A stretch of 64,000 nucleotides of DNA from an uncultured Nitrososphaerota archaeon (GTDB lineage: Archaea > Thermoproteota > Nitrososphaeria > Nitrososphaerales > CADDZS01): positions 256,001 through 320,000 of the forward strand of contig CAWCYI010000004.1 in NCBI GenBank assembly GCA_963799845.1, given 5' to 3'. Below are positions 48,245-62,678 of the stretch, piece after piece. The first letter of the stretch is position 1, and every line of letters begins with the position of its first letter. Position numbers and translations under genes: made by a program. Under the pieces are notes generated by a model. That model saw nothing but the letters and a program-made list of their open reading frames with translations, searched no databases and was not told the origin of the DNA.

Positions 48245-48526
48245 CTAATCTTTTACACCAACTATTGAATAAACTATCAGAGAAAAGCCAATTACTTCTG
48301 CCCCTGCCTCGATCGTTTCGACGATGGTTAGATCATAGTTCAAAAACTCAAACAAGAGCCCGGCCAAAGCCGCACCGATTGTTACGAACACGAAACCAAG
48401 AGCCAGAAAAAGAAGAGACTTGCTCTTTGTTTTTCTGTAGCCTTTTTGTGAATAATAGACAACAATTATTCCTAGAATCAAAATGGCAATTTGGAAAATG
48501 CGTAACAGGTCGAGAGTTACGGTCAA
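48245..48526 (-). CDS. Small 3-TM membrane protein, partner of the adjacent wHTH
   Basis: KGYRKT...LLFLALGF...GFSLIVYSI; starts 4 nt after the wHTH stop. Confidence 0.85.
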   Translation of the reverse strand: MTVTLDLLRIFQIAILILGIIVVYYSQKGYRKTKSKSLLFLALGFVFVTIGAALAGLLFEFLNYDLTIVETIEAGAEVIGFSLIVYSIVGVKD

Positions 48527-48530
48527 TTAT

Positions 48531-48887
48531 TTACGCCCTCATTGAAGACCACAATCGCGACAGTCTCGTGGCAACGTCCTCGTTCAGCTCAACGTCCAAC
48601 ACAATCTCGCCCTGATTCAATTGTAATTTTATGCTCCTGAAAGAGCTCCTGTAAAGTTCAAATTTCTTGCCGTCGTCAGTGATGATCGTCTTTTCAACCG
48701 TGAGTAGACCAATATCCCGCATTTCATTTACGCGGCGATACGACGTACTAATCGGAATCTGTTCGGACGCGCTCAGCTCTTCAACCGACCTCGCTCGATC
48801 TATCGTTCCCAAGAGAATCTTCCTCGAATATTCGTCAGCCAGCGCCCTAATCAGCGCGTCGCGGACGTTCTGGCCTGTTATTCTCAT
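48531..48887 (-). CDS. ArsR-like winged-HTH transcriptional regulator
   Basis: ALADEYSRKIL, IPISTSYRRV, DGKK...Y; paralogue of 61371..61826. Confidence 0.9.
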   Translation of the reverse strand: MRITGQNVRDALIRALADEYSRKILLGTIDRARSVEELSASEQIPISTSYRRVNEMRDIGLLTVEKTIITDDGKKFELYRSSFRSIKLQLNQGEIVLDVELNEDVATRLSRLWSSMRA

Positions 48888-48956
48888 TTCTTCGACCCGG
48901 CATTGAAAAGACCTAGCTTTCGGAACTTTTTGATTGATCTAATAAGGCAGTACACG

Positions 48957-48974
48957 ATTCTCACGAGTGATAAT
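48957..48974 (-). promoter_or_regulatory. Motif A site, wHTH promoter
   Basis: ATTATCA-CTCG-TGAGAAT, then 11 nt, then TTATTAGA (minus strand). Confidence 0.75.
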
Positions 48975-48990
48975 GATCTGAAGGGGTAGA

Positions 48991-49010
48991 AACCCGAACA
49001 GATTCGGGAT
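48991..49010. promoter_or_regulatory. Motif B palindrome
   Basis: AACCCGAACAGATTCGGGAT; near-identical to 61869..61888. Confidence 0.65.
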
Positions 49011-49021
49011 TTTCAAGAGTT

Positions 49022-49039
49022 GCTATCAATTTTGATGAT
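49022..49039 (+). promoter_or_regulatory. Motif A site, promoter of 49096
   Basis: GCTATCA-ATTT-TGATGAT, then 11 nt, then TTTAAGTA. Confidence 0.75.
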
Positions 49040-49095
49040 CGTCTCCCGGCTTTAAGTACCAATGCCCCCCAAATGACTCACAAGTGAAAAACTAA

Positions 49096-49671
49096 ATGCT
49101 AAAGTCTCAAGAACAAACTGTAAAGCAAGTACCCGTAACGACTAGCAGATGGGCAAGCAGATTTACCTGGGCAGCCGTGGTCCAGGGTCTGATCCTAACA
49201 ATCATCACGGTGCTCATCGTGGAGCCGCTCAGCTACTTCGGCATCAATTCGTACTACAGCCCGTCTAAAGTTATAGCGGGAGGCGGAGGAGGAACATGGC
49301 TGTTCACTGGCTACATTCTATATCTTACGGTAGGCGTTATCGCGGTCGCAGTCACTGCAATGTTCTACTTCTTCATCGAAGGAGTCAACGGCAAGGTGTA
49401 CCATGGTCTGACGAACTACCTCGCCTGGGGGCACTATATATTCATGAATGTGGGAGTCGCTGGTTCTATGCTCCTCATGATCTGGGGTGGTTATATGGCA
49501 GGTTATGCCGCAGCTCCAGTTGCCTCGGGAGGCCTGGGTTACACAGATCTACAAATCCACGTGAACTATCTCGGTCAGCTAGTCAACCCAATTGGCGGAT
49601 TCGTCCTTCTGGCAGCAGTCGGTGCAATCCTCGGAGGACTTGGATTCATACTCAGAAGCAGGATGAAGTAA
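49096..49671 (+). CDS. 4-TM membrane protein resembling the C-terminal helices of heme-copper oxidase subunit I-like proteins
   Basis: LAWGHYIFMNVG...WGG; hydrophobic; family call tentative. Confidence 0.75.
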   Translation: MLKSQEQTVKQVPVTTSRWASRFTWAAVVQGLILTIITVLIVEPLSYFGINSYYSPSKVIAGGGGGTWLFTGYILYLTVGVIAVAVTAMFYFFIEGVNGKVYHGLTNYLAWGHYIFMNVGVAGSMLLMIWGGYMAGYAAAPVASGGLGYTDLQIHVNYLGQLVNPIGGFVLLAAVGAILGGLGFILRSRMK

Positions 49672-49687
49672 TCATCGAAATCTATGC

Positions 49688-49715
49688 GGGGATAAAATTC
49701 CCCCACCTATTTTTT
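49688..49715 (+). terminator. Hairpin plus T-tract terminator
   Basis: GGGGA-TAAAAT-TCCCC followed by TTTTTT, just after the stop codon. Confidence 0.55.
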
Positions 49716-49762
49716 ATTCGGAGAAATAATTTTTAGAGAAATAAAATGGTGAAATTGGTAAA

Positions 49763-49987
49763 ATGAGAGCAAAGTACGCAACAGTCAAGATTCCACAAGA
49801 ACTCGCCATGAAGCTGGATGAGTTTGTCGTGGACTTGGGTTATAGAAGCAGGGCAGAAATTGTGAATGACGCTATCAGAAGGTTTATCGATGAAAGGAAA
49901 AGGTTGGATAATCCATCGGCAGTCAGCGAATCGGAAGTACCTACTCGGAATCTCAAACGGAATGAACCGATCAAGTTAACTCCATGA
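49763..49987 (+). CDS. Ribbon-helix-helix (CopG/NikR-like) regulator
   Basis: TVKIP.EL..KLD...GYRSRAE.V.DAIR. Confidence 0.88.
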   Translation: MRAKYATVKIPQELAMKLDEFVVDLGYRSRAEIVNDAIRRFIDERKRLDNPSAVSESEVPTRNLKRNEPIKLTP

Positions 49988-50009
49988 GTTTAAGCTCGGT
50001 TAGGTTAAG

Positions 50010-50459
50010 TTGCAACGTTCTCCTTCAGTCATGAAAGTTCTCGATGTCATGTCAACGGATCTTGTCACCAGTCAGGCTGATGAACCACTTAACGAAGCCG
50101 TGCATCGAATGCTGCAGCGAGATGTCGGGTGTATAATAGTAATGGATGATTCGGTTGTGGAGGGGATCATAACGAAGGGTGACGTGTTGAAGAAGGCATT
50201 TCTTCTCGATCTGGATGCTCGGGAAGTTTCTTCGAAAAAGGTGATGTCGAAACCGGTAATAGCAATCGACCCGGACTCGACGCTTGAAGAAGCTTCGCGA
50301 ATGATGACTAGAAACAACGTGTCGAAGCTTGCGGTCGTCAAGGGAAAGAAACTTGTCGGTGTTGTGACTTCCAGCGATATCATCAGGGCGGAGCCAATGC
50401 AGGTGGGCTATCTTCAGGAACTCATCAAAGCAAGGTTTGTGCCCCACGACATCGGCTAA
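50010..50459 (+). CDS. Stand-alone CBS-pair protein
   Basis: V.DVM, GIITKGD, GVVTSSD. Confidence 0.93.
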   Translation: MQRSPSVMKVLDVMSTDLVTSQADEPLNEAVHRMLQRDVGCIIVMDDSVVEGIITKGDVLKKAFLLDLDAREVSSKKVMSKPVIAIDPDSTLEEASRMMTRNNVSKLAVVKGKKLVGVVTSSDIIRAEPMQVGYLQELIKARFVPHDIG

Positions 50460-50485
50460 ATCCCTGGGGCCGATGATGATCGTTC

Positions 50486-50644
50486 ATGAAAGTAGATTCG
50501 AAGAGGGCGAAAGCTGCTGGAAGAAAATGTCCCAAGTGTGGCACGGTTATGATAAACGGTGTTTGTCCTAAATGCAAATACTCGGCAAAGACAGCCTACA
50601 AAAGTAGACGGGAAGCTAAGGAATTCACTTTTGCTGGCGACTGA
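50486..50644 (+). CDS. 52-aa basic CPxCG-type Zn-finger small protein (below the track cut-off)
   Basis: MKVDSKRAKAAGRKCPKCGTVMINGVCPKCKYSAK... Confidence 0.75.
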   Translation: MKVDSKRAKAAGRKCPKCGTVMINGVCPKCKYSAKTAYKSRREAKEFTFAGD

Positions 50645-50843
50645 AATGTTATTCTCTTTAGGAGAATCATTAGTAACTTCCGTTCAACACAAATTCAATA
50701 TTGTTAATTGTTGATTACTTCTCTTCAGAGTTTCTCGACTATGACGAAAAGAATCGTGAAAAAGAGACACATCGAGCAATCTGTAGTCTCCCACAGAAAG
50801 TCGAAAAAGTGCCAATTCAGAGCGAAGGCTTTGCCTTCCCCCA

Positions 50844-51682
50844 TCAAGAAGTGCGGGTTGTCTCGGCTATATTCAACTGGCCTAATTCCCACGTCTTCAC
50901 GGTCAGATCCCAAGGAGTTACAATACCTCGATCTGTAAGAGCACAGTCATTGTCCTTCAGCGACAGCAATTCGGCTGCATCTGAGATTTGTTTTCTGCCG
51001 TCGATCCAGGGGACTTCTCCAAGTTCGATATCATCCAATGTTCCATCAAGCAATCTGTTCTGAAACCTCAAGATGTGGCCGAGTCTCTCTTGTTGGAACA
51101 AGTACGCAAGAATCTGTTTGTCAGAGATCACAGTCCTTGTACCTGAAATCTGGACACGTCTGAATTTTCGACGCCCAATCTCCTTCAAGGATACGTCGAG
51201 CTTGTTCCCCGAGAAAGTTGGAAGACAGGGAATGTCACTATATCATCGACTACAAGCTTCGACGAAAAAATTCCAAGATGATACAATTTCAAAAGATCTT
51301 TTACAGAAATTTTTTCATACTGACTTTTTTTTCCATGAACCAGGGCAAATCCAAAAGTGGATGATTGGAAGACATGCAGTAGAGAAAGAATGTCATCGTT
51401 CGAACTGATCGTTCCGGCCAGAAGGGAACTCTCGAGACAAGGAGAATTGAGAAACGAAGCGTAATTATGCGGATTCATTTGCATCATTTTCGAAACAATT
51501 GAATATCCGGAAATAACCAGTGGCCTTGCCTCCGAGGATCCCTGATTCGATTCTATTAACAGAAGGTCGAAATCATTTTCACGAAGTTTTTGAATCGCCT
51601 CTAGGATTATTGTCCTGCCGGATATAGTCTTGAGAGGTCTCACATCCAGACGTGGAAGGATTTCTTCTAGGTTAGCTGCCAA
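50844..51682 (-). CDS. Degenerate four-CBS-domain protein (apparent missing base at about 51203)
   Basis: Adding one A restores RGTKLDVSLKEIGRRKFRRV; shares GYS, FGFA, RRV and GIVTPWDL with 62782..63588. Confidence 0.8.
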
Positions 51683-51696
51683 TTTATTTATTCATC

Positions 51697-52114
51697 CTAT
51701 GGAAATATTTGTTCGCCGGACTCTGCATCCTTCACAGTAATCGCTTTGTAGGGACACATCTGTGCTGATACGATTATCTTTTCGCTTGGAACTTCTCTGT
51801 CCTGGACATCCTTCATCCCAAGTGGTTCGTCCGCATTTCTTCCAAAGCCCAAGTTGGAGTAATCCAGTGCGAATACTTCCGGTGCAAGTGCCACGCAGAC
51901 TTTCAACTCCCATGCATTTCCCCTGCTCGATGCTCAAAATTAGCCTGCGATTGTCCCGAGTCACGATTTCCTTCTCCCCTCTTCTTTGCAAGCTATCCAG
52001 AGTGCCGGAAACTAGACGAATTATCACGTCAGAATAATCTTCGTTTTGTTTCTTAGCCCTTTGTATCGTATCGTATGCTCTTGCAGAGATTTCTATCGTT
52101 ATTTCGTCAGTCAT
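51697..52114 (-). CDS. RHH (VapB3/DUF217-like) DNA-binding domain fused to a single-cluster ferredoxin (apparent extra base at 51899)
   Basis: TIEIS..AY.....AK...EDYSDVIIRL; removing one base gives KCMGVESCVALAPEVF...AQMCPYKAI. Confidence 0.8.
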
Positions 52115-52162
52115 GAAACTCAAACAGTTAAGCACAGATTATGATAATAAAGAGCCACCACG

Positions 52163-52180
52163 ATTACCAAGTTTGGTTTT
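52163..52180 (-). promoter_or_regulatory. Motif A site, RHH-ferredoxin promoter
   Basis: AAAACCA-AACT-TGGTAAT, then 11 nt, then TTTATTAT. Confidence 0.7.
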
Positions 52181-52373
52181 GAGACTTCTCTTACAGACTG
52201 GAGCTCTGAGAGTCAGCGATTCGCGATCCCCAGTTTTGACGGTAAGAATTGTGAATCCAGGTTGAGGGTACTCAACGGCCGGGCCCCCTCGAGACAATCG
52301 TCAAACTAGGATTCTAATCTTCGAGAGTAAGGAGGTGTCGTTTGAAATGGAGGTTCTCCGCTTGTAATTCCAC

Positions 52374-53336
52374 TCACGACATTGTCGTTCCTGCGTTACC
52401 ATCCAGTGCTTGCCTGCCTTGCTCCAGGGATGCAATTATCGCCTTCTCTCCCCCTGCTTCCAAAAAATTGATGGCGGCTTGAACTTTGGGTCCCATGCTC
52501 CCGGGAGGAAACTGCCCCTCTGTCAAGTATTTTCTTGCCTCCTCGATTGTTAGCGAATCAAGCTGCTTTTCATTAGTTTGACCATAATTTAGTGCAAGTT
52601 TCTCAACATCAGTCAGGATCAGTAGCACATCGACTTTCATCAACGAAGCAATCAAACTGGCGCTCAGGTCTTTATCGATCACTGCTTCAACTCCCACCAG
52701 GCTTCCGTCATCATTTCTTACCACTGGGATACCTCCTCCCCCTGAATGAATAATCATGAATCCTTCGTCGAACATTTTCCGAATTACCTTGAGTTCGACA
52801 ATCGATTTTGGTTTTGGTGATGGAACAACCCTGCGATACCCCTTGTTACTATCGTTCACGACGATCCACCCCTTCTCACTTGCGAGGTTTCTCGCCTCTG
52901 TTTCTGAATAGTAAGGGCCGATTGGTTTGGTCGGATTTGCAAATGCCGAGTCGTTCCTGTCTACTATTGTTTGCGTGAGGATCGTGACCATTGGAATGTC
53001 CAACCCCGCCTTCCTTAGTTCATTGTCTAGGGACTGTTGCAACATATAACCGATCATGCCCTGACTTTCTGCCCCACAAACATCGAGAGGCATTGGCGGG
53101 AGAACATTTTTCGCGAGATCGTCTCTTAGTAGGATATCTCCGACTTGGGGGCCGTTTCCGTGAGTGATTGTTAACAGTGCTCCGTGAAGAAACAAATCTA
53201 CAAGTTGAGAAGATGTGTGACGTATGTTGGCAAACTGCTGTTCGGAAGTTCCAGTTTCTTTCCGTTGAAGAATCGCGTTTCCCCCGAGAGCTACAAGAAC
53301 TTTCATCTGGCTAACCAAATCCTCACCTGAATACAA
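52374..53336 (-). CDS. arcC: Carbamate kinase (true start probably 53318 or 53306)
   Basis: ALGGNA, HGNGPQVG, PTKPIG, GGGGIPV, AVIDKD, GSMGPK. Confidence 0.97.
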   Translation of the reverse strand: MYSGEDLVSQMKVLVALGGNAILQRKETGTSEQQFANIRHTSSQLVDLFLHGALLTITHGNGPQVGDILLRDDLAKNVLPPMPLDVCGAESQGMIGYMLQQSLDNELRKAGLDIPMVTILTQTIVDRNDSAFANPTKPIGPYYSETEARNLASEKGWIVVNDSNKGYRRVVPSPKPKSIVELKVIRKMFDEGFMIIHSGGGGIPVVRNDDGSLVGVEAVIDKDLSASLIASLMKVDVLLILTDVEKLALNYGQTNEKQLDSLTIEEARKYLTEGQFPPGSMGPKVQAAINFLEAGGEKAIIASLEQGRQALDGNAGTTMS

Positions 53337-53366
53337 TTATAGTTTGGCAATTTAAGCTGAGAGAAC

Positions 53367-53384
53367 GTTTTCAAATTCGAAAAT
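53367..53384 (-). promoter_or_regulatory. Motif A site, arcC promoter
   Basis: ATTTTCG-AATT-TGAAAAC, then 11 nt, then TTAAATTG. Confidence 0.6.
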
Positions 53385-53432
53385 GACCGATCTCTGTTTC
53401 GATACTGATACCTCTTTATCTATAACCTCGAA

Positions 53433-53450
53433 ATTATCAAAATTGGCGAT
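53433..53450 (+). promoter_or_regulatory. Motif A site, CBS-HPF promoter
   Basis: ATTATCA-AAAT-TGGCGAT, then 11 nt, then CTTAAATA. Confidence 0.7.
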
Positions 53451-53493
53451 CATCCTCGTTTCTTAAATAGCTCAATCGGCAACTAATTCCAAA

Positions 53494-54648
53494 ATGTCCT
53501 ATTCACATTCAATCGATCATCTCAGAGTTTCAGATTTTGTTGAACCTGCTTCTATGTTTAATTCATCTGATTCTGTATCGCATTTGATCGGAACTTTGAA
53601 GAGATCCAAGGGGTATGAGGGTTTCGTCGAGGAAACCAGTCGGACTTGCACGATAACTCTCCGCGAAATTCTAGATGTTGAGAGCGCAGATACGACTAAG
53701 GTCTCCGCACTAATGCTTCCAGTACCGAGATTGAACGCAGGCGATTCGATTATCTTTGCAGCAAAACTGATGTTCGAAAACAAATTGAGGGCGCTCCCAG
53801 TCTACGAAAATGGGAAACTGCAGGGAAAAGTAACTTCGCCATCGATTGTCAGAAGAATGATAGAATCAAATCCTCCCGAAGAAACGCTCCCAAAGATTAT
53901 GACTCCGGGTCCTATTTGCCTTGTAGATTCGGATGCAATGTCGAAAGCGAGGAGTATAATGATAAGAAGAAAAATCGACCAGCTCCCGATTCTCAGAGCG
54001 GGAGAACTGAGCGGCGTAATAACCTCGGAAGATATCGTCTTCAGCTTTCTTTCTGCTCCGCTGGATAGAGATTCGAAGGGAGGGCGAGAAGACAGCCGAT
54101 TTAGTGCCCCGGTGTCAACTCTTGCCTCCGTCGAAACGACATCTAACGACATCAAGGACTCACTTTCAAATGTCGCTCAGGAGATGCTGAGGATGCGGAC
54201 GAACTATTCAGTAATATTGGGCGGTGGATCTGTCAAAGGCATAGTTACGTTTAGAGACTTTCTGAAGTTGCTGCCGATCAGTGGAGCAAATGAGGACGTA
54301 CCAGTCTCGATCATTGGACTGCCCGACAATCCACTAGAAGCAGAACTGGTCACGTCGAAATTCACCGCTTCGGTGCGCATGCTGCAGAGGATGGATCCCA
54401 CCGTGAGCGAGGTCAGAGCCGTAATCAAGAACAAGGAGGTTAATTCGAATACGATACTGCATCAGGTACAGGTCTTCATCGACAGTTCAAAGTGGCACGA
54501 AAGCTATGAAGCTTCCGGGTACGACATCTCGAAAGTATTCGCCGAGATTGATACATGGATTAAGCGAATAGCCTCAAAGCATGACTTCAAACCTGACCGG
54601 GAAAGAATGTCATTCAAGACTGTCAGGCACTCTGACGGAAACGTCTAA
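53494..54648 (+). CDS. Four CBS domains plus a C-terminal HPF/RaiA-like domain (Hib-type ribosome hibernation factor candidate)
   Basis: CBS motifs LPV/GVITSED/GIVTFRD; C-terminal beta-alpha-beta-beta-beta-alpha pattern VSIIG...EVRAVIK...QVQVFI...ASGYDISKVF. Confidence 0.75.
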   Translation: MSYSHSIDHLRVSDFVEPASMFNSSDSVSHLIGTLKRSKGYEGFVEETSRTCTITLREILDVESADTTKVSALMLPVPRLNAGDSIIFAAKLMFENKLRALPVYENGKLQGKVTSPSIVRRMIESNPPEETLPKIMTPGPICLVDSDAMSKARSIMIRRKIDQLPILRAGELSGVITSEDIVFSFLSAPLDRDSKGGREDSRFSAPVSTLASVETTSNDIKDSLSNVAQEMLRMRTNYSVILGGGSVKGIVTFRDFLKLLPISGANEDVPVSIIGLPDNPLEAELVTSKFTASVRMLQRMDPTVSEVRAVIKNKEVNSNTILHQVQVFIDSSKWHESYEASGYDISKVFAEIDTWIKRIASKHDFKPDRERMSFKTVRHSDGNV

Positions 54649-56561
54649 TCCCGGATCATACCTTCTCTTCGGAAGTTCCGGGTCTGATCAAATATTCCGT
54701 ACTGCTCGGTAAATTCTCTGAATATCTGTCGTTTCTTCAGCTGATGTTTCTCTTCCGTAGCCAGTAAGTTCGCCAATGTTCTTGTGGCATCCAAAATATG
54801 TGGACCCTTGTTCAGCATGACGCACTCTGCCCGAATTCCCATTACTGCATCGGTTATCTCTGCCCTTGAAGGCAATCCACTTTTCGCCATGGTCTCCAAG
54901 ACCTGAGTTGCAAAGATAACTGGAATGTGAGATGCTTCACACATACAAAGAATGTCTTCTTGGACGAAAGCAAGATTTTCAAATCCGACCTCAACTGCCA
55001 GATCTCCTCTTGCGATCAAGATTCCGAATTTCGGAAGGTTCAGTCCAGCCAGTAGAATTTCTCCGAGCTTGTGTACAGCTTCTCTGGTTTCTATTTTCGC
55101 GATGATTCCGAAATCGTCGTGACCCAATTTCTTGAGCGCCTCGTGTAAAGAATGCAAGTCCTCGGCGCGATGAACGAAAGATAGTCCAACTGCGGTTGCA
55201 TGAGAGGTAATGAAGTCCAGATTATTCTCGTCCTCGGGTGTAAGAGCTGGAATTATGATTGATGAATCAGGAAAGTTCAGCCCCTTCTCCGACTTGATTC
55301 CCGCCGTGCCTTCAGTCGGAGAAAGAATTTCAAGCTCCAAGAACTCGTCGTTTATTTTCCGAATGATACAACCGATCTTTCCATCGTCAATGAAGACACG
55401 TTCCCCGATTTTTGCAAAGTCTAACGCCCTTGGCAACGTACAGCTGATCCCTGCTGGTTCCTCATTTGTCTCAGGGGTACCTAGCCGTGTTGGATCTCGA
55501 AAGAGATTCAATTTGTCTCCAGTCTTCACCTGAATTTCTACGGGCTGCGGCTTCATTGCCCCAGTAGTCAGTTTAATCCCGCTTTCTGATTCAATTGAAA
55601 TTCCTTCTTCCAGATATGCTGTTCTGGCTAAACCTACTCTGATTTTAGTCGGAGTTACCTTCTGAAGGACGACGAAAATTCTTTGTCGATCTCGCGCGTC
55701 GTTGAACTTTAGCCTCTCACCCACTTTCAGGTTCGAAATATTGGGATGATCCTTCAAGGCTATCGTAAACCCGGGCATCATCCCGGTCAGGTTTTGCTTT
55801 TCGGTCAGTGTTGCATCGCAATCCAACAATCCCTCCAGCAGTCTCGAAGTCTTTCCCGCGAAGTCCTTAGGGACTGAGAGTTTTAGAGGCCGTTCTACAA
55901 GCGCAAGAGGGCCCGTTCGAATCTTCGGGCCGGCAAGATCCATCAGAATTCGACAAGTCCTTCCGATCCCTTTTCCTCGTTGTACCAATCTCTCTTCGGC
56001 CGTCCTGATTGAGTTGATCAACATCAACCATTCACTTTCGGAATCGTGGGCGCAGTTAATTCGAGCGATGTCCATTCCTGAGAGCAACAACTGCTCTAAC
56101 AGTTCAGGTTGGTAAATGTACGGGGAATCGAGGGTCACCATTATTCGAGTCTTCCTTCCATCACGTGGTCGACCGAGAAGCTGTTTGCTTCGTTCTTCGA
56201 GAAGGGAATTCGCGAGAGAAAACGTGGTCTTATGAAGAGAAGTCTTGGTCGGAGGTATCCCTAGGTTTCCAAGCACCTTCACTATGTTTGATAAAGTGTC
56301 TCCTTCCAATCTTCCAAGAGAGGACAGTCCTAGATTTGAGAGTGATATTTGAAGCAGCGAAAGGTCATGCTCTCGTAGGGCAAGATACAACAGAAAGTTG
56401 TCTCGACTGTATTCATTCTGCGGAGAAAACACGGGAAATCTCGGAGCAACAGTTTCAGATTTTCTCAAAATTTCCGAGTATAGATCGTAGAGTTGTTTTC
56501 CAACCTTAACTCGATCTGGATCGTCTCTTTCCACAACAAGAGGAACTTGACTGTCTACCAT
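54645..56561 (-). CDS. pyk: Pyruvate kinase, long form with expanded B domain
   Basis: RIMVT, ARINCAH, DLAGPKIR, AKIE, ARGDL, ATQ, CVMLNKG. Confidence 0.95.
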   Translation of the reverse strand: MVDSQVPLVVERDDPDRVKVGKQLYDLYSEILRKSETVAPRFPVFSPQNEYSRDNFLLYLALREHDLSLLQISLSNLGLSSLGRLEGDTLSNIVKVLGNLGIPPTKTSLHKTTFSLANSLLEERSKQLLGRPRDGRKTRIMVTLDSPYIYQPELLEQLLLSGMDIARINCAHDSESEWLMLINSIRTAEERLVQRGKGIGRTCRILMDLAGPKIRTGPLALVERPLKLSVPKDFAGKTSRLLEGLLDCDATLTEKQNLTGMMPGFTIALKDHPNISNLKVGERLKFNDARDRQRIFVVLQKVTPTKIRVGLARTAYLEEGISIESESGIKLTTGAMKPQPVEIQVKTGDKLNLFRDPTRLGTPETNEEPAGISCTLPRALDFAKIGERVFIDDGKIGCIIRKINDEFLELEILSPTEGTAGIKSEKGLNFPDSSIIIPALTPEDENNLDFITSHATAVGLSFVHRAEDLHSLHEALKKLGHDDFGIIAKIETREAVHKLGEILLAGLNLPKFGILIARGDLAVEVGFENLAFVQEDILCMCEASHIPVIFATQVLETMAKSGLPSRAEITDAVMGIRAECVMLNKGPHILDATRTLANLLATEEKHQLKKRQIFREFTEQYGIFDQTRNFRREGMIRD

Positions 56562-56643
56562 TCTCTAAGTCTCATCTGGGACTGAAAAATATACTAAAAA
56601 TTATTATTTTTTCGGCTCTCTTCCACCTAAAAAGATGACCTCG

Positions 56644-56661
56644 ATTTTCAAAAACAGTAAT
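56644..56661 (-). promoter_or_regulatory. Motif A site, pyk promoter
   Basis: ATTACTG-TTTT-TGAAAAT, then 11 nt, then TTTTAGG. Confidence 0.55.
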
Positions 56662-56671
56662 CACCCGAATA

Positions 56672-56689
56672 ATTCTCAGTGTTGGGAAT
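56672..56689 (+). promoter_or_regulatory. Motif A site, permease-arcB-arcA operon promoter
   Basis: ATTCTCA-GTGT-TGGGAAT, then cgtctccatgg, then ATAAATAT. Confidence 0.75.
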
Positions 56690-56744
56690 CGTCTCCATGG
56701 ATAAATATCGTCAGAGTGGTCTTTCAAAGTCAGGTCACTGAGAA

Positions 56745-58334
56745 ATGCAGTCAAGTCAGAGCCACAAAGAGGAAGACAAACCTGCGCTGAAGAAGGAACT
56801 TGGTCTCTGGAGCCTCGTGGGCCTGGGCGCTGGCGGTATCATCGGATCTGGGATATTTGGGCTGATAGCCGCTTATGGTGCAGACGCAGGACCTGCGCTG
56901 ACTTTGGCCATCGTCTTTGTCGGGATCATCATGACCATACTTGCGCTAATCTATGCGGAGTTAGGCTCAAGGTTCCCACTTACGGGAGGTCCCTACTCAA
57001 TCCCAAGACTTGCACTGGGTAATTCTGCGGGCTACCTCATCGGCTGGGGATACTTCATTTACGCTTTCACCGGCACTGCCGCGATTATAGATGTCTTTGT
57101 AACCTATCTCGGTTTCTATGTACCCGGCCTCGCTGTCGGTCTGACACTTACCCCTCTCGGGATAGCGATCTCTCTGGTGGCGCTGGTCGTCTTTACCGTA
57201 ATCAACGTCCTGGGAGTCAAGTGGGGTGGACTATTTAGTATAGTGACCACAGTCACGAAGCTGATTCCACTAATTCTTTTTGCGGCCGTGGGCTTGTTTT
57301 ACTTGAATTTCGGAAATTTCACGCCGTTCATGCCCTTCGGCTGGACTGGGATCGCTGTGGCGATGGCTCTCGCTGTGTTCATGTTCACGGGCTTCGAGGG
57401 TGTCGTCATTCCGAGCGGCGAGGTAAAGAATTCATCCAAGACTATTCCACGCGCCATGATAATCACGATGGCAATAGTCGTCGTAGTCTATGTGCTAATT
57501 GGGGTGGCTTTCGTCGGCATGATCAATTGGTCGGGCCTCGGTATTCATGTGGGTGACTGGTCCTATAGCACAGGCATAGGGAGCCTATCTTCACCGCTCT
57601 CTGATGTCGCGAAGGGTGCGGGCTACGGAATACTTGCGGCTGTGGTGACCATTGGCGCAATCATCAGCACGGCAGGAGCTGGTAGCGACTGGGTCCTTTT
57701 CCAGGGTCGGATCCCATATGCGATGGCCGACGACGGGCTCTTCCCCAAGGTCATGGACAGGGTCAATAGCAAATATCGTACTCCCGCTCTTTCGATTATC
57801 TTTGCCGCGATCCTGACCGGAATAATCCAGGTGCTCTTTCCGTTCTTCCCAAACGTTGTGCTACTCGCATCAATCACGACCCTCATCCCATACGCAGCCG
57901 CTTCGGTATCGCTCGCAATCTTGAGAAAGAGCCCTCAGTCAGGAGTCGCGGATCACTTCAGACTCCCTGCAGGCATGATATTCGCCTTCCTAGGGTTCGT
58001 CTTATCAAGCGTGCTGATCTACTGGGCTACCTGGCCACTGACACTAGTGGGAGTGATTTTGACACTCATCGGGTTTCCCCTCTATTTGTTCACGAAGAAC
58101 AAGAAGATGGAGTGGCGCAGGCAGGTATGGTTGTGGGTTTACGTATTGGGGCTGACAGTGATATCGTTCATCGGAGATACGAACTTCGTCACTTCAGGCA
58201 TCCTGCCTATTCCAGGCCCGCTTGGGTACCTACCTTTACCGTACGACATAGTGGCCGTAGAGGTGTTTTCAGCGTTGATATTCTTCTGGGCTTACAAGGC
58301 CAATGTAGGAAAGGTCGTTGAGCTAAAAGCATGA
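56745..58334 (+). CDS. APC-family amino acid permease; probable arginine/ornithine antiporter by context
   Basis: IIGSGIF, YAELG, F.F.GFE; first gene of the arc operon. Confidence 0.92.
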   Translation: MQSSQSHKEEDKPALKKELGLWSLVGLGAGGIIGSGIFGLIAAYGADAGPALTLAIVFVGIIMTILALIYAELGSRFPLTGGPYSIPRLALGNSAGYLIGWGYFIYAFTGTAAIIDVFVTYLGFYVPGLAVGLTLTPLGIAISLVALVVFTVINVLGVKWGGLFSIVTTVTKLIPLILFAAVGLFYLNFGNFTPFMPFGWTGIAVAMALAVFMFTGFEGVVIPSGEVKNSSKTIPRAMIITMAIVVVVYVLIGVAFVGMINWSGLGIHVGDWSYSTGIGSLSSPLSDVAKGAGYGILAAVVTIGAIISTAGAGSDWVLFQGRIPYAMADDGLFPKVMDRVNSKYRTPALSIIFAAILTGIIQVLFPFFPNVVLLASITTLIPYAAASVSLAILRKSPQSGVADHFRLPAGMIFAFLGFVLSSVLIYWATWPLTLVGVILTLIGFPLYLFTKNKKMEWRRQVWLWVYVLGLTVISFIGDTNFVTSGILPIPGPLGYLPLPYDIVAVEVFSALIFFWAYKANVGKVVELKA

Positions 58335-58468
58335 TAAGAAGCCTTCCGCTCGGCGACTCTGCATCCTTCCTCCTTGAATCGATTCTTAGACGAGCCGCCA
58401 AACTGAACAAAGAAATAAAGCAGGAAATGGAGCTCGATTTGTTGAATCGAATGGTGGTCAGTGTATGA
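58331..58468 (+). CDS. 45-aa ORF resembling the N-terminus of the downstream OTCase
   Basis: ATGA overlaps at both ends; 13/45 identities with ArcB aa 1-46 by manual alignment. Confidence 0.65.
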   Translation: MIRSLPLGDSASFLLESILRRAAKLNKEIKQEMELDLLNRMVVSV

Positions 58469-59388
58469 CTCGATCGTTCCTTTCAGTTTCAGATATCTCT
58501 GCCGTGGAAATGGACGTGATACTAACGCGGACCAGGAGCATCAAGGCGAGCATCAAATCAAGGGAGAAGATTGCAACTCTCGCGGATTACGTTGTATGTC
58601 TTCTGTTCGAAAAGCCCTCAACTAGAACGAGCGCGGCTTTCGAAGTTGCGACCCTCCGGCTTGGGGGCAATCCGCTTTACTTTTCGTCGCAAGAACTTCA
58701 ACTAAGCAGGGGCGAGCCCGTCAAGGACACAGCTAGAGTACTAGGTTCAGATATGGACGGGATAGTGGCGAGAGTATTCGCTCACGATACCGTCAATCAG
58801 CTGTCGATGTATTCTGGGATTCCGGTAATAAACGGTCTGAGCGATTTAGAACACCCGACACAGATCGTATCGGACTTCTTCACCATTCAGGAGGTCAAGG
58901 GCAAGTTGAAAGGATTGAAAATGGCCTACATAGGAGATGGTGACAACGTCTGTAATTCTCTGCTTCTCGGGGCGGCCATGGTCGGAATGAACTTGTCGGT
59001 TGCCTGCCCTATAGGATACGAGCCAAATAGCGAGATCCTGGAAAGAGCTTTGGTGGATGCCAAGATTACAGGATCATCATTAGTTGTCACAAACAGCCCG
59101 AGTGAAGTAGTCAGGGACGCTGATGTCCTCTATACCGATGTCTGGGTGAGCATGGGAGAGGAGGCAGAGCAGGAAAAGCGAATGAAAGCCTTTGTGGGAT
59201 ACCAGATCAACTCTCAACTAATGAAACTGGCGAAAGGCAACGCAGTTGTGATGCACTGTCTCCCGGCACACAGAGGCCTTGAAATCACTGATGACATTAT
59301 CGAGGGAGCCCAGTCAATTGTGTGGCAGCAGGCGGGCAACAAACTTCCCGGCGCTGCTAGCGTTCTAGAATTTTTCCTGAGAAAATAA
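58465..59388 (+). CDS. arcB: Ornithine carbamoyltransferase (catabolic by context)
   Basis: STRT, HPTQ, WVSMG, HCLP. Confidence 0.95.
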   Translation: MTRSFLSVSDISAVEMDVILTRTRSIKASIKSREKIATLADYVVCLLFEKPSTRTSAAFEVATLRLGGNPLYFSSQELQLSRGEPVKDTARVLGSDMDGIVARVFAHDTVNQLSMYSGIPVINGLSDLEHPTQIVSDFFTIQEVKGKLKGLKMAYIGDGDNVCNSLLLGAAMVGMNLSVACPIGYEPNSEILERALVDAKITGSSLVVTNSPSEVVRDADVLYTDVWVSMGEEAEQEKRMKAFVGYQINSQLMKLAKGNAVVMHCLPAHRGLEITDDIIEGAQSIVWQQAGNKLPGAASVLEFFLRK

Positions 59389-59392
59389 ATAA

Positions 59393-60709
59393 GTGAAAAG
59401 GAAATTGGTAGCAAAAATTAGGGCGGAGTTCGATCGACTGAGACGAGTGGCGATTCACAGGCCGGGAATCGAAATGTTCTTCGGCTTGCTGGCGCCAGAA
59501 GCGTCTCTTTACGAGAGAGTGTTCAACAGGTACGGGGCAAGAATGGAGCATGAAAGGCTCGAATATACGCTCAGGCACGAATTCGGAATTGAAGTTTTTC
59601 GAATCAAGGAAAGATTGCTCGAGCTGGCGGACAAAAAACCGGAAATCAGGGACAAATTAGTTGTCGCCGGCCTGAACGATCTCAAGTTCACCGGAGACGA
59701 AAAAACAGTAGCCGAAGCAAAAAAAGAAGTTCAAGAAGGATCTGCAATGTACGACGGTGGCCACTTTTTCAATCTGCTTTTACTCCACCCGACATTGGAC
59801 CTTGAAAAAGGAGGAAAGGCGGCCAGGGCAATTCATCTGGGTGTCACCGAAAATGATCCTCTTGCAAACCTCTATTTCATGAGAGACCAACAGGCTGTAA
59901 CTGACAAAGGGATCTTCCTATCGCGAATGTCGAAACCCCAAAGAGCAGGGGAACCTTCCCTGACCAAGTTCGTATGGCAGGCGTTGGGAGAGCAGATAAT
60001 TCACGAAACCCAATCCCCTGGGACCTTTGAAGGCGGGGATTTCATTCCCATGAAAGATTTCGCCCTCGTCGGCTTCGGAGATAGAACCAACAGAAGCGGA
60101 GTTGATCAGATGCTTGAATTTGGTTTAAATTTTGATGAAGTGGCGGTGGTCCATCAACCCAGCCACCCCCTGATACCCGGAGACGAGATTGATCCGATGA
60201 TCGACATGCACGTCGACACCTACTTTAACATCGCAGGCAGTGGAGTCGCAGTAGGATCTGAACTGTTACTGAAACGGGCTAAAGTCGAAATTTACGACCA
60301 CGAAGGTGAGAATGTTTACAAGAAATCTGAACGCGAAACAAACCTGCATGATTACATCACGAAGAAAGGTTTTGACATCATAAATCTAACCACACTCGAA
60401 CAGCTATGCTATGCTTCAAATTTTCTATGCATAAAAGACGGGCAGATTTTGGCAATTGAAGTTGAAAGAGAAGTAAAAAATGTCCTCAAGACCCTTGCCT
60501 CGCAGGCTGAAGAGAACCCACATCGCTATGGTAGGCTCCTTGACCAAGCCCGAAAGGATTACCAGGACCTTCAGGATTTAGGCGGTTTCTTTCCTCACAA
60601 GAAGGAGATTTACCAACACGGAATAGATGCGTATGCGATCGTCATGACAAACCTGACCGGCGGATATGGGGGAGCGCACTGCATGACGGCGGTGCTAGAA
60701 AGAAATTAG
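59393..60709 (+). CDS. arcA: Arginine deiminase
   Basis: NLYFMRD, EGGD, MHVDT, GYGGAHCMT. Confidence 0.93.
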   Translation: MKRKLVAKIRAEFDRLRRVAIHRPGIEMFFGLLAPEASLYERVFNRYGARMEHERLEYTLRHEFGIEVFRIKERLLELADKKPEIRDKLVVAGLNDLKFTGDEKTVAEAKKEVQEGSAMYDGGHFFNLLLLHPTLDLEKGGKAARAIHLGVTENDPLANLYFMRDQQAVTDKGIFLSRMSKPQRAGEPSLTKFVWQALGEQIIHETQSPGTFEGGDFIPMKDFALVGFGDRTNRSGVDQMLEFGLNFDEVAVVHQPSHPLIPGDEIDPMIDMHVDTYFNIAGSGVAVGSELLLKRAKVEIYDHEGENVYKKSERETNLHDYITKKGFDIINLTTLEQLCYASNFLCIKDGQILAIEVEREVKNVLKTLASQAEENPHRYGRLLDQARKDYQDLQDLGGFFPHKKEIYQHGIDAYAIVMTNLTGGYGGAHCMTAVLERN

Positions 60710-60719
60710 CCCCAAGACG

Positions 60720-61196
60720 CTACCTTACGACAAGTACTGAACAGTGCGCATGGGCAATTATCGCGTTAGATACGCTGCCAAGCAGCAGTTTCTTGAAACC
60801 GCCTAAGCCTCTCGTTCCGACAATGAGCAGATTGATTTTCTCATTGGAAGCCTCTTCCAAGATCGTCTCGGCAACAGAGGTAACTGTCCTCAAAACAATC
60901 CCTCTTGCGTTGACGGATTCGTTCTTCGCATCCGCTACAGCGTCATTTACCAATTTCTTCGCGTCATTCTCTGCAAGCTCCAGATAGTTCGAATAATCGA
61001 CTGCAGGAACATTCACTCCGATCGGAGAGAAAACCGGAGGAACCATTTCCGCAACCACGTTCAAGATCAGCAGTTCCGATTGAAACTGCTTTGCAATACT
61101 AATAGCTGCCTTTGCTGCCCTTGTCGCATTTTCCGATCCGTCGATTGAAACGAGGATCTTGCTCAACGGCAATAAATGTGATGATTCGTCTGACAT
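60720..61196 (-). CDS. Universal stress protein
   Basis: ILVSIDGS, GTRGLGG....LGSVS. Confidence 0.95.
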   Translation of the reverse strand: MSDESSHLLPLSKILVSIDGSENATRAAKAAISIAKQFQSELLILNVVAEMVPPVFSPIGVNVPAVDYSNYLELAENDAKKLVNDAVADAKNESVNARGIVLRTVTSVAETILEEASNEKINLLIVGTRGLGGFKKLLLGSVSNAIIAHAHCSVLVVR

Positions 61197-61245
61197 CTGA
61201 TTTCAACAATACATTCGCATTCAAGTTAATTAAATAATCCACAGG

Positions 61246-61263
61246 ATCTCCATGATTGAAAAC
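61246..61263 (-). promoter_or_regulatory. Motif A site, USP promoter
   Basis: GTTTTCA-ATCA-TGGAGAT, then 11 nt, then TTTAATTA. Confidence 0.7.
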
Positions 61264-61370
61264 AAGTGGATACGGAACGGATATGAATCTGGAGCTTGCT
61301 CTTCGCGCTAGATCATGACGAAATTGTCGAGTTTTTTGTTCATCGCCCTTGTTCTTGCGGTAAGCGACGA

Positions 61371-61826
61371 TTAAAGAATAGGAGCTATTTTCTGGAGAGC
61401 TGAGGTACCGATCGCTGCCGACTCTTGCAATTTTTCAGGGATTGCTTGGCTAGCTTCTTTCGGTCTCAATGTTGACCAGATGTCACTCAACTTATCCGCT
61501 GGATCTCTATTGGAAACAAGATCTACCTTCAGTTCTCCTGATTCTAGCTGAATAGTCGCGTTCCTGAATGACGACTTGTAACACACGAATTTCTTACCGT
61601 CATCATGAATTATTGTTCTATCCGGTCTGACGATACCGTATTCCAGCATCTCGTGAATCCTTCGATAACAAGTGCTGACAGGAATGTGCTGTTCTTTGCT
61701 GATCTCCTCGATTGGAAGGGAATTTGAGATGATCGTAAGAACAATTTTTCGAGAATATTCGTCCGCGAGTACCTTTATGACTTCAAGGGCCTTTTCCTCG
61801 TCAGAGACGAGCAATGAATGATTCAC
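61371..61826 (-). CDS. ArsR-like winged-HTH regulator, paralogue of 48531..48887
   Basis: LADEYSRKI, IPVSTCYRRI, DDGKKF..Y.SSFR. Confidence 0.9.
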   Translation of the reverse strand: MNHSLLVSDEEKALEVIKVLADEYSRKIVLTIISNSLPIEEISKEQHIPVSTCYRRIHEMLEYGIVRPDRTIIHDDGKKFVCYKSSFRNATIQLESGELKVDLVSNRDPADKLSDIWSTLRPKEASQAIPEKLQESAAIGTSALQKIAPIL

Positions 61827-62045: not shown

Positions 62046-62678
62046 TTAGGACTTTTCAAAATATCCGGTTATTATCCTTCTTTCCGCCCTTCTCAGGATC
62101 TCGGATGCGGTGCTTGGGGAAATCCCGACTGCTTTGGACAATTCTTCCGTAGAAATACGCTTTGGATAATCATAGTACCCAAGTTCCAGTGCAGATTTCA
62201 TGACGCGCTCCTGCTTGGGAGTCAAAGCCCTAGTTGGGCTCATCTTCGCAATCTCTCCAATCTTGTAGATAACCCCATTCTCGTGCAAAGATTGAAGAAA
62301 ATTTGGAATGCCCTCACCACTCATGAAAAGCTTGTACGTCATCTGGCAATTACTCTCGGTCACGGCAGGGCCGACAAAGTATCCGCTCTGGGATTGCATG
62401 ATCAAAAAGCATACTAGGCAGTCCTTGCTGGTTACTGCGCCTACTAGTCTATTCGGTCCCACGCTCGCAAGATCGCATTCCGTAACATCAGGCAGGTTAC
62501 CCAAATCCTTTCTCAGATGTTCCGCGGTAACTTTCTCGGATGTAATCTCGACAAAGTGAGTGATGTTCCGTTCAGAGTCCTGCGACTTCATACTTAGTAC
62601 CCTTACGATTGCAGAATCATTGCGGCAGATGTTATCGATCCAGCTTTCTGGGTTGACGCTGAACTGTAGCTGGATCAC
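62046..62678 (-). CDS. HTH-10 (Bat-type) regulator with a Cys-containing N-terminal domain
   Basis: LTPKQ..V...ALELGYYDYPKRI...LRRAE; DCLVC motif. Confidence 0.9.
   Translation of the reverse strand: MIQLQFSVNPESWIDNICRNDSAIVRVLSMKSQDSERNITHFVEITSEKVTAEHLRKDLGNLPDVTECDLASVGPNRLVGAVTSKDCLVCFLIMQSQSGYFVGPAVTESNCQMTYKLFMSGEGIPNFLQSLHENGVIYKIGEIAKMSPTRALTPKQERVMKSALELGYYDYPKRISTEELSKAVGISPSTASEILRRAERRIITGYFEKS

Follow-up and report, generated by a model that had tools for sequence, protein, structure and literature searches.

The window analysed here – a stretch of 64,000 nucleotides (nt), C4:256001-320000 of the 4.6-Mb, nine-contig assembly of an uncultured Nitrososphaerales archaeon (G000; 86.7% complete, 4.9% contamination) – holds eight promoters that share one cis-element: an 18-bp imperfect palindrome followed at a fixed distance by a TATA-like box. 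A preliminary description of the sequence had placed the palindromes at 48957, 49022, 52163, 53367, 53433, 56644, 56672 and 61246, and had seen in them the operators of an energy-stress regulon under one activator. All eight are present at these positions, and after every one, read in the orientation of the gene, come 11 nt and then an A/T-rich TATA-like box. The elements are given below as palindrome, spacer and box, together with the score of each under a 38-nt matrix trained on 66 sites, all of them outside the window, which guards against circularity. Throughout, G-numbers denote the genomes compared (G001 enters tallies only), f-numbers families within the order, R-numbers motif sites of G000 and L-numbers loci.

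48937-48974, minus strand: element 1, ATTATCACTCGTGAGAAT, cgtgtactgcc, TTATTAGA; 27.0 bits; serves the winged helix-turn-helix (wHTH)–DUF7521 pair
49022-49059, plus strand: element 2, GCTATCAATTTTGATGAT, cgtctcccggc, TTTAAGTA; 36.5 bits; serves the gene of a protein with four transmembrane segments (4-TM)
52143-52180, minus strand: element 3, AAAACCAAACTTGGTAAT, cgtggtggctc, TTTATTAT; 17.8 bits; serves the ribbon-helix-helix (RHH)-like gene 51692-52135
53347-53384, minus strand: element 4, ATTTTCGAATTTGAAAAC, gttctctcagc, TTAAATTG; 15.7 bits; serves arcC
53433-53470, plus strand: element 5, ATTATCAAAATTGGCGAT, catcctcgttt, CTTAAATA; 28.2 bits; serves the gene of a CBS-domain protein of 384 amino acids (aa)
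56624-56661, minus strand: element 6 (weak), ATTACTGTTTTTGAAAAT, cgaggtcatct, TTTTAGGT; 12.0 bits; upstream of a long pyruvate kinase gene
56672-56709, plus strand: element 7, ATTCTCAGTGTTGGGAAT, cgtctccatgg, ATAAATAT; 30.6 bits; serves permease-arcB-arcA
61226-61263, minus strand: element 8, GTTTTCAATCATGGAGAT, cctgtggatta, TTTAATTA; 21.3 bits; serves a universal stress protein (USP) gene

Six of the sites are strong (at least 17.8 bits), the arcC site (53367) is moderate and the pyruvate kinase site (56644), whose distal half-site is degenerate, is weak; on the reversed genome the same matrix gives 19 matches of at least 12 bits and one of at least 16 bits. The spacer starts with CG in six of the eight (mostly CGTNT...), and the TATA-like box may be read one base off at 53433 and 56644. 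The consensus originally offered, ATTNYCA-N4-TGRNRAT, holds exactly at three sites (48957, 53433 and 56672), while the other five depart from it at one or two positions. As an exact IUPAC pattern it has five strand matches in the window, against 0.08 expected. Once two mismatches are allowed, the pattern by itself shows no enrichment there (50 matches, 40.7 expected); the eight sites convince by their context, the 11-nt spacer and the TATA-like box.

The genes served, and those that stand with them, are the following.

48245-48526, minus strand: DUF7521 membrane protein (PF24365, 69.8 bits), the conserved partner of OG-A wHTH genes
48531-48887, minus strand: candidate wHTH regulator of type OG-A, 118 aa (HTH_20, 26 bits against a cut-off of 27), of the family likened below to CsmR
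49096-49671, plus strand: 4-TM membrane protein of a Nitrososphaerota-specific family, third member of a conserved module
49763-50459, plus strand: RHH protein (49763-49987; RHH_1) and CBS-pair protein (50010-50459; CBS)
51185-52135, minus strand: RHH-like protein (51692-52135; VapB-like RHH below cut-off) with a 165-aa open reading frame (ORF) of no known family behind it
52374-53336, minus strand: arcC, carbamate kinase (TIGR00746, 416.5 bits, above cut-off)
53494-54648, plus strand: 384-aa CBS-domain protein, CBS being the sole family found even at E up to 1
54645-56561, minus strand: pyruvate kinase, 638 aa (PF00224; NF011314, 630 bits against a cut-off of 642)
56745-60709, plus strand: arginine deiminase operon of amino-acid permease (AA_permease_2), ornithine carbamoyltransferase (TIGR00658, 383.5 bits) and arginine deiminase-family enzyme (PF02274, 135 bits)
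60720-61196, minus strand: universal stress protein (PF00582, 103 bits)
61371-61826, minus strand: second wHTH, of type OG-B, 151 aa, with a C-terminal tail and without a DUF7521 partner; 49% identical to the 48531 gene

Pfam and NCBIfam bear out most of the names first given to these genes – arcC, arcB, permease, USP, pyruvate kinase, arginine deiminase family and wHTH – and identify the membrane partner of the wHTH as DUF7521. The arginine deiminase pathway is present with its three enzymes and a transporter: arcC and arcB score above their equivalog cut-offs, the permease belongs to the generic APC family, and arcA is an arginine deiminase at the level of the Pfam family only, its TIGR01078 equivalog score being far below cut-off. 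Two names fared less well. The supposed RHH-ferredoxin keeps its RHH part, below cut-off, and loses its ferredoxin part, for which Pfam gives no support; in the supposed CBS-HPF protein Pfam detected no HPF domain at E up to 1, and the ribosome hibernation read into the regulon is thus unsupported. Element 2 probably serves the RHH and CBS-pair genes as well as the 4-TM gene, since the two lie on the same strand behind it with short gaps and without a site of their own. The 4-TM protein matched no Pfam family, and its Atlas clusters consist of Nitrososphaerota hypothetical proteins; an Atlas resemblance to a COX1 fragment (score 0.84) was too weak and was not used. On contig C8 the 4-TM gene has a paralogue, which carries a site of its own (R115). 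The pyruvate kinase is unusually long, its N-terminal ~320 residues lying outside the Pfam match to the pyruvate kinase barrel.

The shared element, with its fixed spacing to the TATA box, is real, and the regulon is not limited to the eight promoters first described: about 100 occur genome-wide. A symmetric matrix made from the eight window sites found 69 intergenic matches of at least 14 bits and 32 of at least 16 bits, against about 12 and about 2 in order-2 Markov simulations. By iteration it was turned into an oriented 38-nt model, which at 16 bits or more gives 122 matches in G000 and two in the background control, the reversed whole genome searched on both strands. The 122 matches represent 103 distinct palindromes, 69 of them with an orientation that reaches 24 bits, and 47 of the 103 lie in five islands; among these are C4:304957-333819 (16 sites, containing the eight-site cluster) and C4:1020753-1068360 (17 sites).

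The consensus of the element reads ATT(A/C)TCA-N4-TGA(G/T)AAT, then CGT-N-T, six variable nt and TTTAAAT; the base pair at palindrome position 4/15 is A/T or C/G with about equal frequency, and CGT directly follows the palindrome in 54 of the 70 best sites. A/T-rich 8-mers behind intergenic palindromes peak at offsets 10-12 (45-47 of 180 flanks, against about 6-12 elsewhere), a peak not seen for palindromes within coding sequence. Most TATA boxes stand 20-40 nt ahead of the start codon. The variable flanks between conserved blocks show that the element is not a repeat family. Scoring is one-sided: a single palindrome of the 103 reaches 24 bits in both orientations, which indicates that each site serves one promoter and that divergent gene pairs carry two sites, as they do in the window. 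Relative to the TATA box the palindrome spans -29 to -12, its centre ~24 bp upstream of the TATA centre and its half-site centres 11 bp apart, so placed that the CGT-extended proximal edge abuts the position of the B recognition element (BRE); the CGT flank brings the footprint to ~8 nt from the TATA box. The bases at the BRE had been called mostly not purine-rich. Purine content in fact shows no significant difference, but the regulon promoters are poor in A at -6 to -2 (0.19 in the 22 that entered the comparison, against 0.33 in 519 other TATA-bearing promoters; p=0.0017). A scan for bacterial promoters and terminators was uninformative, at or below shuffle level.

With simple ORF calls made for this analysis, 114 of the 122 matches have an ORF of at least 45 aa within 300 nt, and 57 matches pass stricter limits (at least 24 bits, at least 60 aa, at most 130 nt). 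As had been proposed, the downstream genes are enriched in those that make ATP at substrate level and those for stress proteins that bind nucleotides (CBS and USP). Paralogue clusters among them comprise seven CBS proteins, five USP genes, a flavodoxin group, two carbamate kinases, two copies of the 4-TM protein, two alpha/beta hydrolases and two Lrp/AsnC genes. Pfam searches of 20 further downstream proteins returned AllG, an NrdG-like radical-SAM activase, an F420H2-dependent quinone reductase-like protein, a TAT-signal FAD protein, CoxG, a receiver domain, a Bmp-type binding protein, a cupredoxin, DUF1269, DUF498, DUF4386 and a CBS protein with a C2H2 zinc finger. Outside the window, at C4:1059223-1062216, the genes for the second carbamate kinase and for an AllG-family protein (oxamate carbamoyltransferase subunit) are divergently arranged, and both have a strong palindrome of their own (R041 and R043), which suggests that a purine or allantoin branch yielding ATP is controlled alike. 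The genome has one heme-copper oxidase (COX1), and no cytochrome bd was found in it. A search for sequencing runs that hold it turned up three DNA runs of one soil study and none of RNA. A search of G000 for AmoA gave no match, but its positive control matched nowhere, hence this is no evidence of absence.

How far the element extends beyond G000 was followed with a diagnostic pattern, TCANNNNTGANAATCGT, in relatives that are metagenome-assembled genomes (MAGs) and are not independent of one another. The pattern has 23 matches in G000 (reversed-pattern controls, 0-2); of the family's 12 other genomes 11 have it, the highest count being 34, and in G028, a member of another family, it occurs 11 times. 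Across 201 genomes of the order it was found in 8/8 genomes of f1, 1/1 of f17, 2/2 of f18, 26/43 of f9 (1-6 matches each), 6/9 of f4, 12/43 of f12 and 12/42 of f15, with none in several families. A handful of sites per genome is thus common in the order, and the large regulon is special to its own family and f17. Individual sites of the window are kept in relatives: that of element 1 upstream of wHTH orthologues in G003, G007 and G010, and in G011 one at the gene best matching the RHH-like gene 51692-52135 and one of 35.2 bits at the carbamate kinase orthologue of arcC (64% identity). Among 48 downstream ORFs of the relatives, Pfam finds cytochrome bd subunit I, a molybdopterin oxidoreductase, a NarJ-like protein, ferredoxins, a radical-SAM protein, carbamate kinase, USP, CBS and glutamate dehydrogenase. 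Four Nitrososphaera MAG loci (L018, L021, L023 and L024) carry a variant palindrome, (A/G)(A/G)TC(C/T)CAAGNTTG(A/G)GATT, followed by cg(t/c)cta and a TATA box at the same spacing; it lies ~320-390 nt upstream of the wHTH homologue and faces a divergent secreted-protein gene. Sought as TCNCANNNNTGNGAWTCG in five genomes, the variant gave one match in all, with no sign of a large regulon.

A critical issue is the protein that reads the palindrome. Genes of the wHTH family of 48531-48887, which has three paralogues in G000 (one of them 61371-61826), adjoin sites in loci of f1, f9, f10, f14 and f17; in G020 and G035 the order of the module is site-4TM-wHTH-site-DUF7521. This adjacency in five families, together with a published haloarchaeal regulator of the same core motif (below), makes the wHTH family the best candidate. 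A tree splits it into OG-A (48531 type) and OG-B (61371 type), with the recognition-helix motif ST.YRR common to both. OG-A is present in G000, G003, G007, G008, G009 and G010, always with DUF7521 behind it, and DUF7521 follows the wHTH in 11 loci of relatives. OG-B, without the partner, is present in G000, G002, G004, G005, G006, G007, G009, G010, G011 and G012: that is, in 10 of the 11 family genomes that are motif-rich (at least two pattern matches), and it was not found in G008 (one pattern match, 94% complete). The genomes being kin and partly incomplete, we treat this apparent co-occurrence as a lead. A site in the gene's own orientation within 260 nt occurs at 4 of 8 OG-A genes and at 1 of 14 OG-B genes; the promoter of 61371-61826 in G000 has none by the leave-window-out matrix. 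The preliminary description had singled out the 48531 gene as the best candidate. Its family has kept that place, but the distribution of the expanded regulon fits the 61371-61826 paralogue at least as well.

An AlphaFold2 model of the 48531 protein (pLDDT 85.9) comprises the wHTH, four strands and a C-terminal helix. Foldseek places PH1932 and Phr (2P4W) in its top three (E 1.5e-4 to 3.5e-4, TMq 0.60-0.67), with SmtB, CzrA and HlyU also in the list, and a profile search of PDB sequences has 1ULY as best match (E 4e-5). These closest structural and sequence matches – Phr (PF1790, PDB 2P4W) and PH1932 (1ULY/2CWE), of ArsR type – are dimeric, palindrome-binding proteins; at ~190-200 aa they are larger than the modelled wHTH (118 aa) and 15-19% identical to it. 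Phr itself is said to be a heat-shock repressor whose site overlaps the transcription start. Full-length homologues of the wHTH were found by tblastn in 103 PLSDB records, all haloarchaeal (30-38% identity); the four that were opened share the ST.YRR helix, and each has a small DUF7521-like ORF behind it. A further search for homologous proteins returned 88, only from close Nitrososphaerales relatives. The DUF7521 profile also matches in the Haloferax volcanii control genome, for which a second preprint names a DUF7521 gene pair. A complex prediction for wHTH and DUF7521 scored 0.00, gave no verdict and was used neither way.

The closest described system is CsmR (HVO_1209) of H. volcanii, reported as a 13 kDa wHTH protein of Halobacteria and some Thaumarchaeota and related by Foldseek to Phr 2P4W (PMC13286277). 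Its ChIP-seq motif, TATCA(N4)TGATA, is given for 50 of 65 peaks within a ~34-bp promoter-proximal element and lies ~10 bases upstream of the BRE/TATA (PMC13286277; preprint 10.64898/2026.02.03.703544). Of the ten positions of this core, our 70 best sites match all in nine cases, all but one in 21 and all but two in 25, so that 55/70 come within two; TCA-N4-TGA is exact in 46/70, and the eight window sites have, in order, 1, 1, 3, 3, 3, 4, 3 and 4 mismatches. The TATA box stands 11 nt from our palindrome and 13 nt from its TGATA core, where CsmR has ~10 bases; the stretch that begins with the T of TATCA and closes with the TATA box measures 34 bp, beside the ~34-bp CsmR element. Both CsmR and, by its model, the 48531 protein are small wHTH proteins that resemble Phr in fold and have a dimerisation part rich in beta structure, and their ranges are alike, since the PLSDB homologues of our family are haloarchaeal and the family occurs in 29 of 41 Nitrososphaerales genomes. 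From these likenesses of description, motif and fold we infer that the wHTH genes of the window are probably related to CsmR. Both systems comprise tens of promoters (~100 here, 65 peaks for CsmR). The systems also differ: our consensus is longer, by the ATT/AAT arms and the CGT flank; the candidates here are two or more paralogues, of which one is paired with a DUF7521 membrane protein; and the archaellum, chemotaxis and cell-shape genes that CsmR targets are absent from the annotated downstream proteins, where stress and fermentative ATP genes stand in their place. Archaellin families had no match in G000 (86.7% complete), while the control matched in four genomes.

We propose that the palindrome would be the operator of a dimeric CsmR-type winged-helix regulator, encoded by 48531-48887, by 61371-61826 or by both. 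Bound directly against the BRE, the dimer would touch or occlude TFB/TBP, and signal-dependent recruitment of TFB would lead to activation. The ~100 promoters, many of them in islands, would in this way be wired into one regulon of an oxidase-bearing archaeon, whose output would be ATP without respiration – via the arginine deiminase pathway, the second carbamate kinase and pyruvate kinase – and which would also supply CBS proteins, USPs, flavodoxins and the anaerobic-type radical-SAM activase. The trigger would most likely be oxygen or energy limitation, a signal suggested by the gene content, to which relatives add cytochrome bd and a molybdoenzyme, in an organism with an aerobic oxidase. 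Taken whole, from operator to predicted binding and output, we consider this explanation probable, if by no means secure.

The fixed phase to the TATA box and the one-sided scoring could also be expected if the element were an extended core-promoter signal for a specialised TFB or TBP paralogue, and Thaumarchaeota do have several TFB paralogues. However, TFB contacts the BRE in the few bases beside the TATA box, and a palindrome at -29 to -12 lies beyond them; an 18-mer with two-fold symmetry fits a dimeric HTH protein; and the published ChIP-seq ties the core to CsmR (PMC13286277). We regard a core-promoter signal as very improbable.

The palindrome might instead be read by another factor – the HTH_10 protein 62046-62678, an Lrp/AsnC paralogue or the CBS zinc-finger protein – with the wHTH genes as ordinary members of the regulon. 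The binding of the wHTH to the element is a prediction, and both Lrp/AsnC genes (R086 and R117) and the CBS-C2H2 protein have sites in their own promoters. The last of these, at R061 (C4:1582111-1582698), is a CBS-pair protein with a C-terminal C2H2-type zinc finger (sub-threshold in Pfam) and could be a nucleotide-sensing DNA- or RNA-binding protein. Against such a factor stand the ChIP-seq of the similarly described haloarchaeal wHTH, which gave the same core (PMC13286277), and the adjacency of wHTH and site, which persists in distant families with few other sites. The Lrp-type family was not found in the motif-rich genomes G004, G006, G007, G009 and G011, and R086 was rejected as main regulator on this ground. 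A reader other than the wHTH family seems to us improbable.

Whether a CsmR-type regulator would activate or repress is a finer question. The position of the site upstream of BRE and TATA was the only basis on which the regulator was first called an activator. The same protein at the same site could act as a repressor, the dimer blocking TFB/TBP in good conditions and leaving on a stress signal: the CGT flank puts its footprint within ~8 nt of the TATA box, and repressors often keep stress regulons off. Indeed, upon deletion of csmR the H. volcanii promoters that bear the motif, of the same architecture as ours, are reported to go up, which argues for repression (PMC13286277). Yet steric repression needs no rigid 11-nt spacing, an A-poor BRE position fits promoters that need help, paralogues could confound the deletion phenotype, and the H. 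volcanii authors read the location of the motif, upstream of BRE/TATA, as a sign of a positive role (PMC13286277). We think the repressor model somewhat unlikely. Rigid spacing and A-poor BRE positions incline us, slightly, toward activation; since the paralogues have a recognition helix in common, one of them may activate and another repress.

Besides the csmR deletion, several observations weigh against a large stress regulon read by a CsmR-type protein. Many regulon members are hypothetical or secreted proteins without a link to energy stress. Only 5 of 54 downstream ORFs of G011, G028 and G029 have their closest counterpart in a regulon gene of G000, namely in arcC, the RHH-like gene, one for a 4xCBS protein and two uncharacterised genes, so that, as far as the sequences tell, membership appears poorly conserved, with quick turnover. 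Searches of G011 (96% complete, 34 pattern matches), G004 and G006 yielded no strict orthologue of the 48531 gene. Many of the Nitrososphaerales genomes that have the wHTH family have 0-2 pattern matches, and its presence therefore has no predictive value for a large regulon. Finally, TATCA-N4-TGATA was not seen near the own genes of the four haloarchaeal plasmid paralogues.

Other systems offer partial parallels. The Thermococcales glycolytic motif of TrmBL1/Tgr, TATCAC-N5-GTGATA, reportedly acts according to its position relative to BRE/TATA and controls energy metabolism, through a regulator of the TrmB family said to have a sugar-binding domain; its half-site TATCA is similar, but its spacing is TATCA-N7-TGATA, against N4 throughout here. 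Ptr2 and TFB-RF1 are reportedly archaeal activators with sites just upstream of the BRE. In Mycobacterium tuberculosis, DosR/DevR is said to use one palindromic box before dozens of genes, USP-dominated and induced by hypoxia in an aerobe, its regulon reportedly including a CBS protein, nitroreductase-like enzymes, a ferredoxin and an alternative ribonucleotide reductase. The likeness to DosR is one of analogy only: that bacterial system works through a two-component response regulator at sigma-70 promoters, and neither its motif nor its protein family is related to ours. EarA is likewise described as an archaeal activator binding just upstream of the BRE (preprint 10.64898/2026.02.03.703544). 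EarA, Ptr2 and TFB-RF1 resemble our case in a site that abuts a weak BRE and in the proposed recruitment of TFB; they differ in family and motif, and their regulons are much smaller.

A bolder account, which as a whole we hold to be rather unlikely, would have two CsmR-type paralogues, one with DUF7521 and the 4-TM protein and one free with a C-terminal tail, sharing the ~100 operators in a membrane-informed switch of an aerobic soil thaumarchaeon to a fermentative, dormancy-like state, an archaeal counterpart of DosR. The three-gene self-regulated module, which other Nitrososphaerales families have, would be ancestral and the operator would have spread to a hundred promoters in this family, while the same pairing of regulator and operator, shared with Halobacteria, would there have been recruited for motility.

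As a kind, the CsmR-type operator upstream of BRE/TATA is already published (2026). Novelty lies in the thaumarchaeal form: its regulon is another one and far larger, its consensus is extended, two paralogues are candidates for the regulator, a membrane module of three genes is conserved, and there is evidence that the regulon expanded inside a single family; in the literature on DUF7521, HVO_1209/CsmR and Thaumarchaeota regulons we found no paper that describes this form. Transcription networks of Thaumarchaeota are almost unknown, and the CsmR paper explicitly leaves the role of the thaumarchaeal relatives open (PMC13286277). A testable answer is offered: a rigid promoter architecture, ~100 predicted targets and two candidate regulators. 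The theme of ATP without respiration combined with CBS and USP proteins is relevant to the survival of non-ammonia-oxidising soil Nitrososphaerales when oxygen or energy is limiting. The system also offers an example of a self-regulated module that has grown into a global regulon, and a regulator–operator pair apparently common to two archaeal phyla with different outputs.

Some minor observations concern the matches themselves. A ninth match in the window (19122-19159, 18.8 bits) is doubtful: it lies between two plus-strand genes, faces no gene and has a poor TATA box, and is probably chance or a relic. The R086 Lrp/AsnC-like family has 12 matches in G000 (for example C6:560446-561111, C8:67382-67864 and C4:535631-536092), and the three of them with an in-frame stop may be pseudogenes or misassemblies. 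Two near-identical, low-scoring matches, at C6:1626282 and C7:6267, lie inside coding sequence with identical flanks, which indicates a gene segment duplicated on two contigs.

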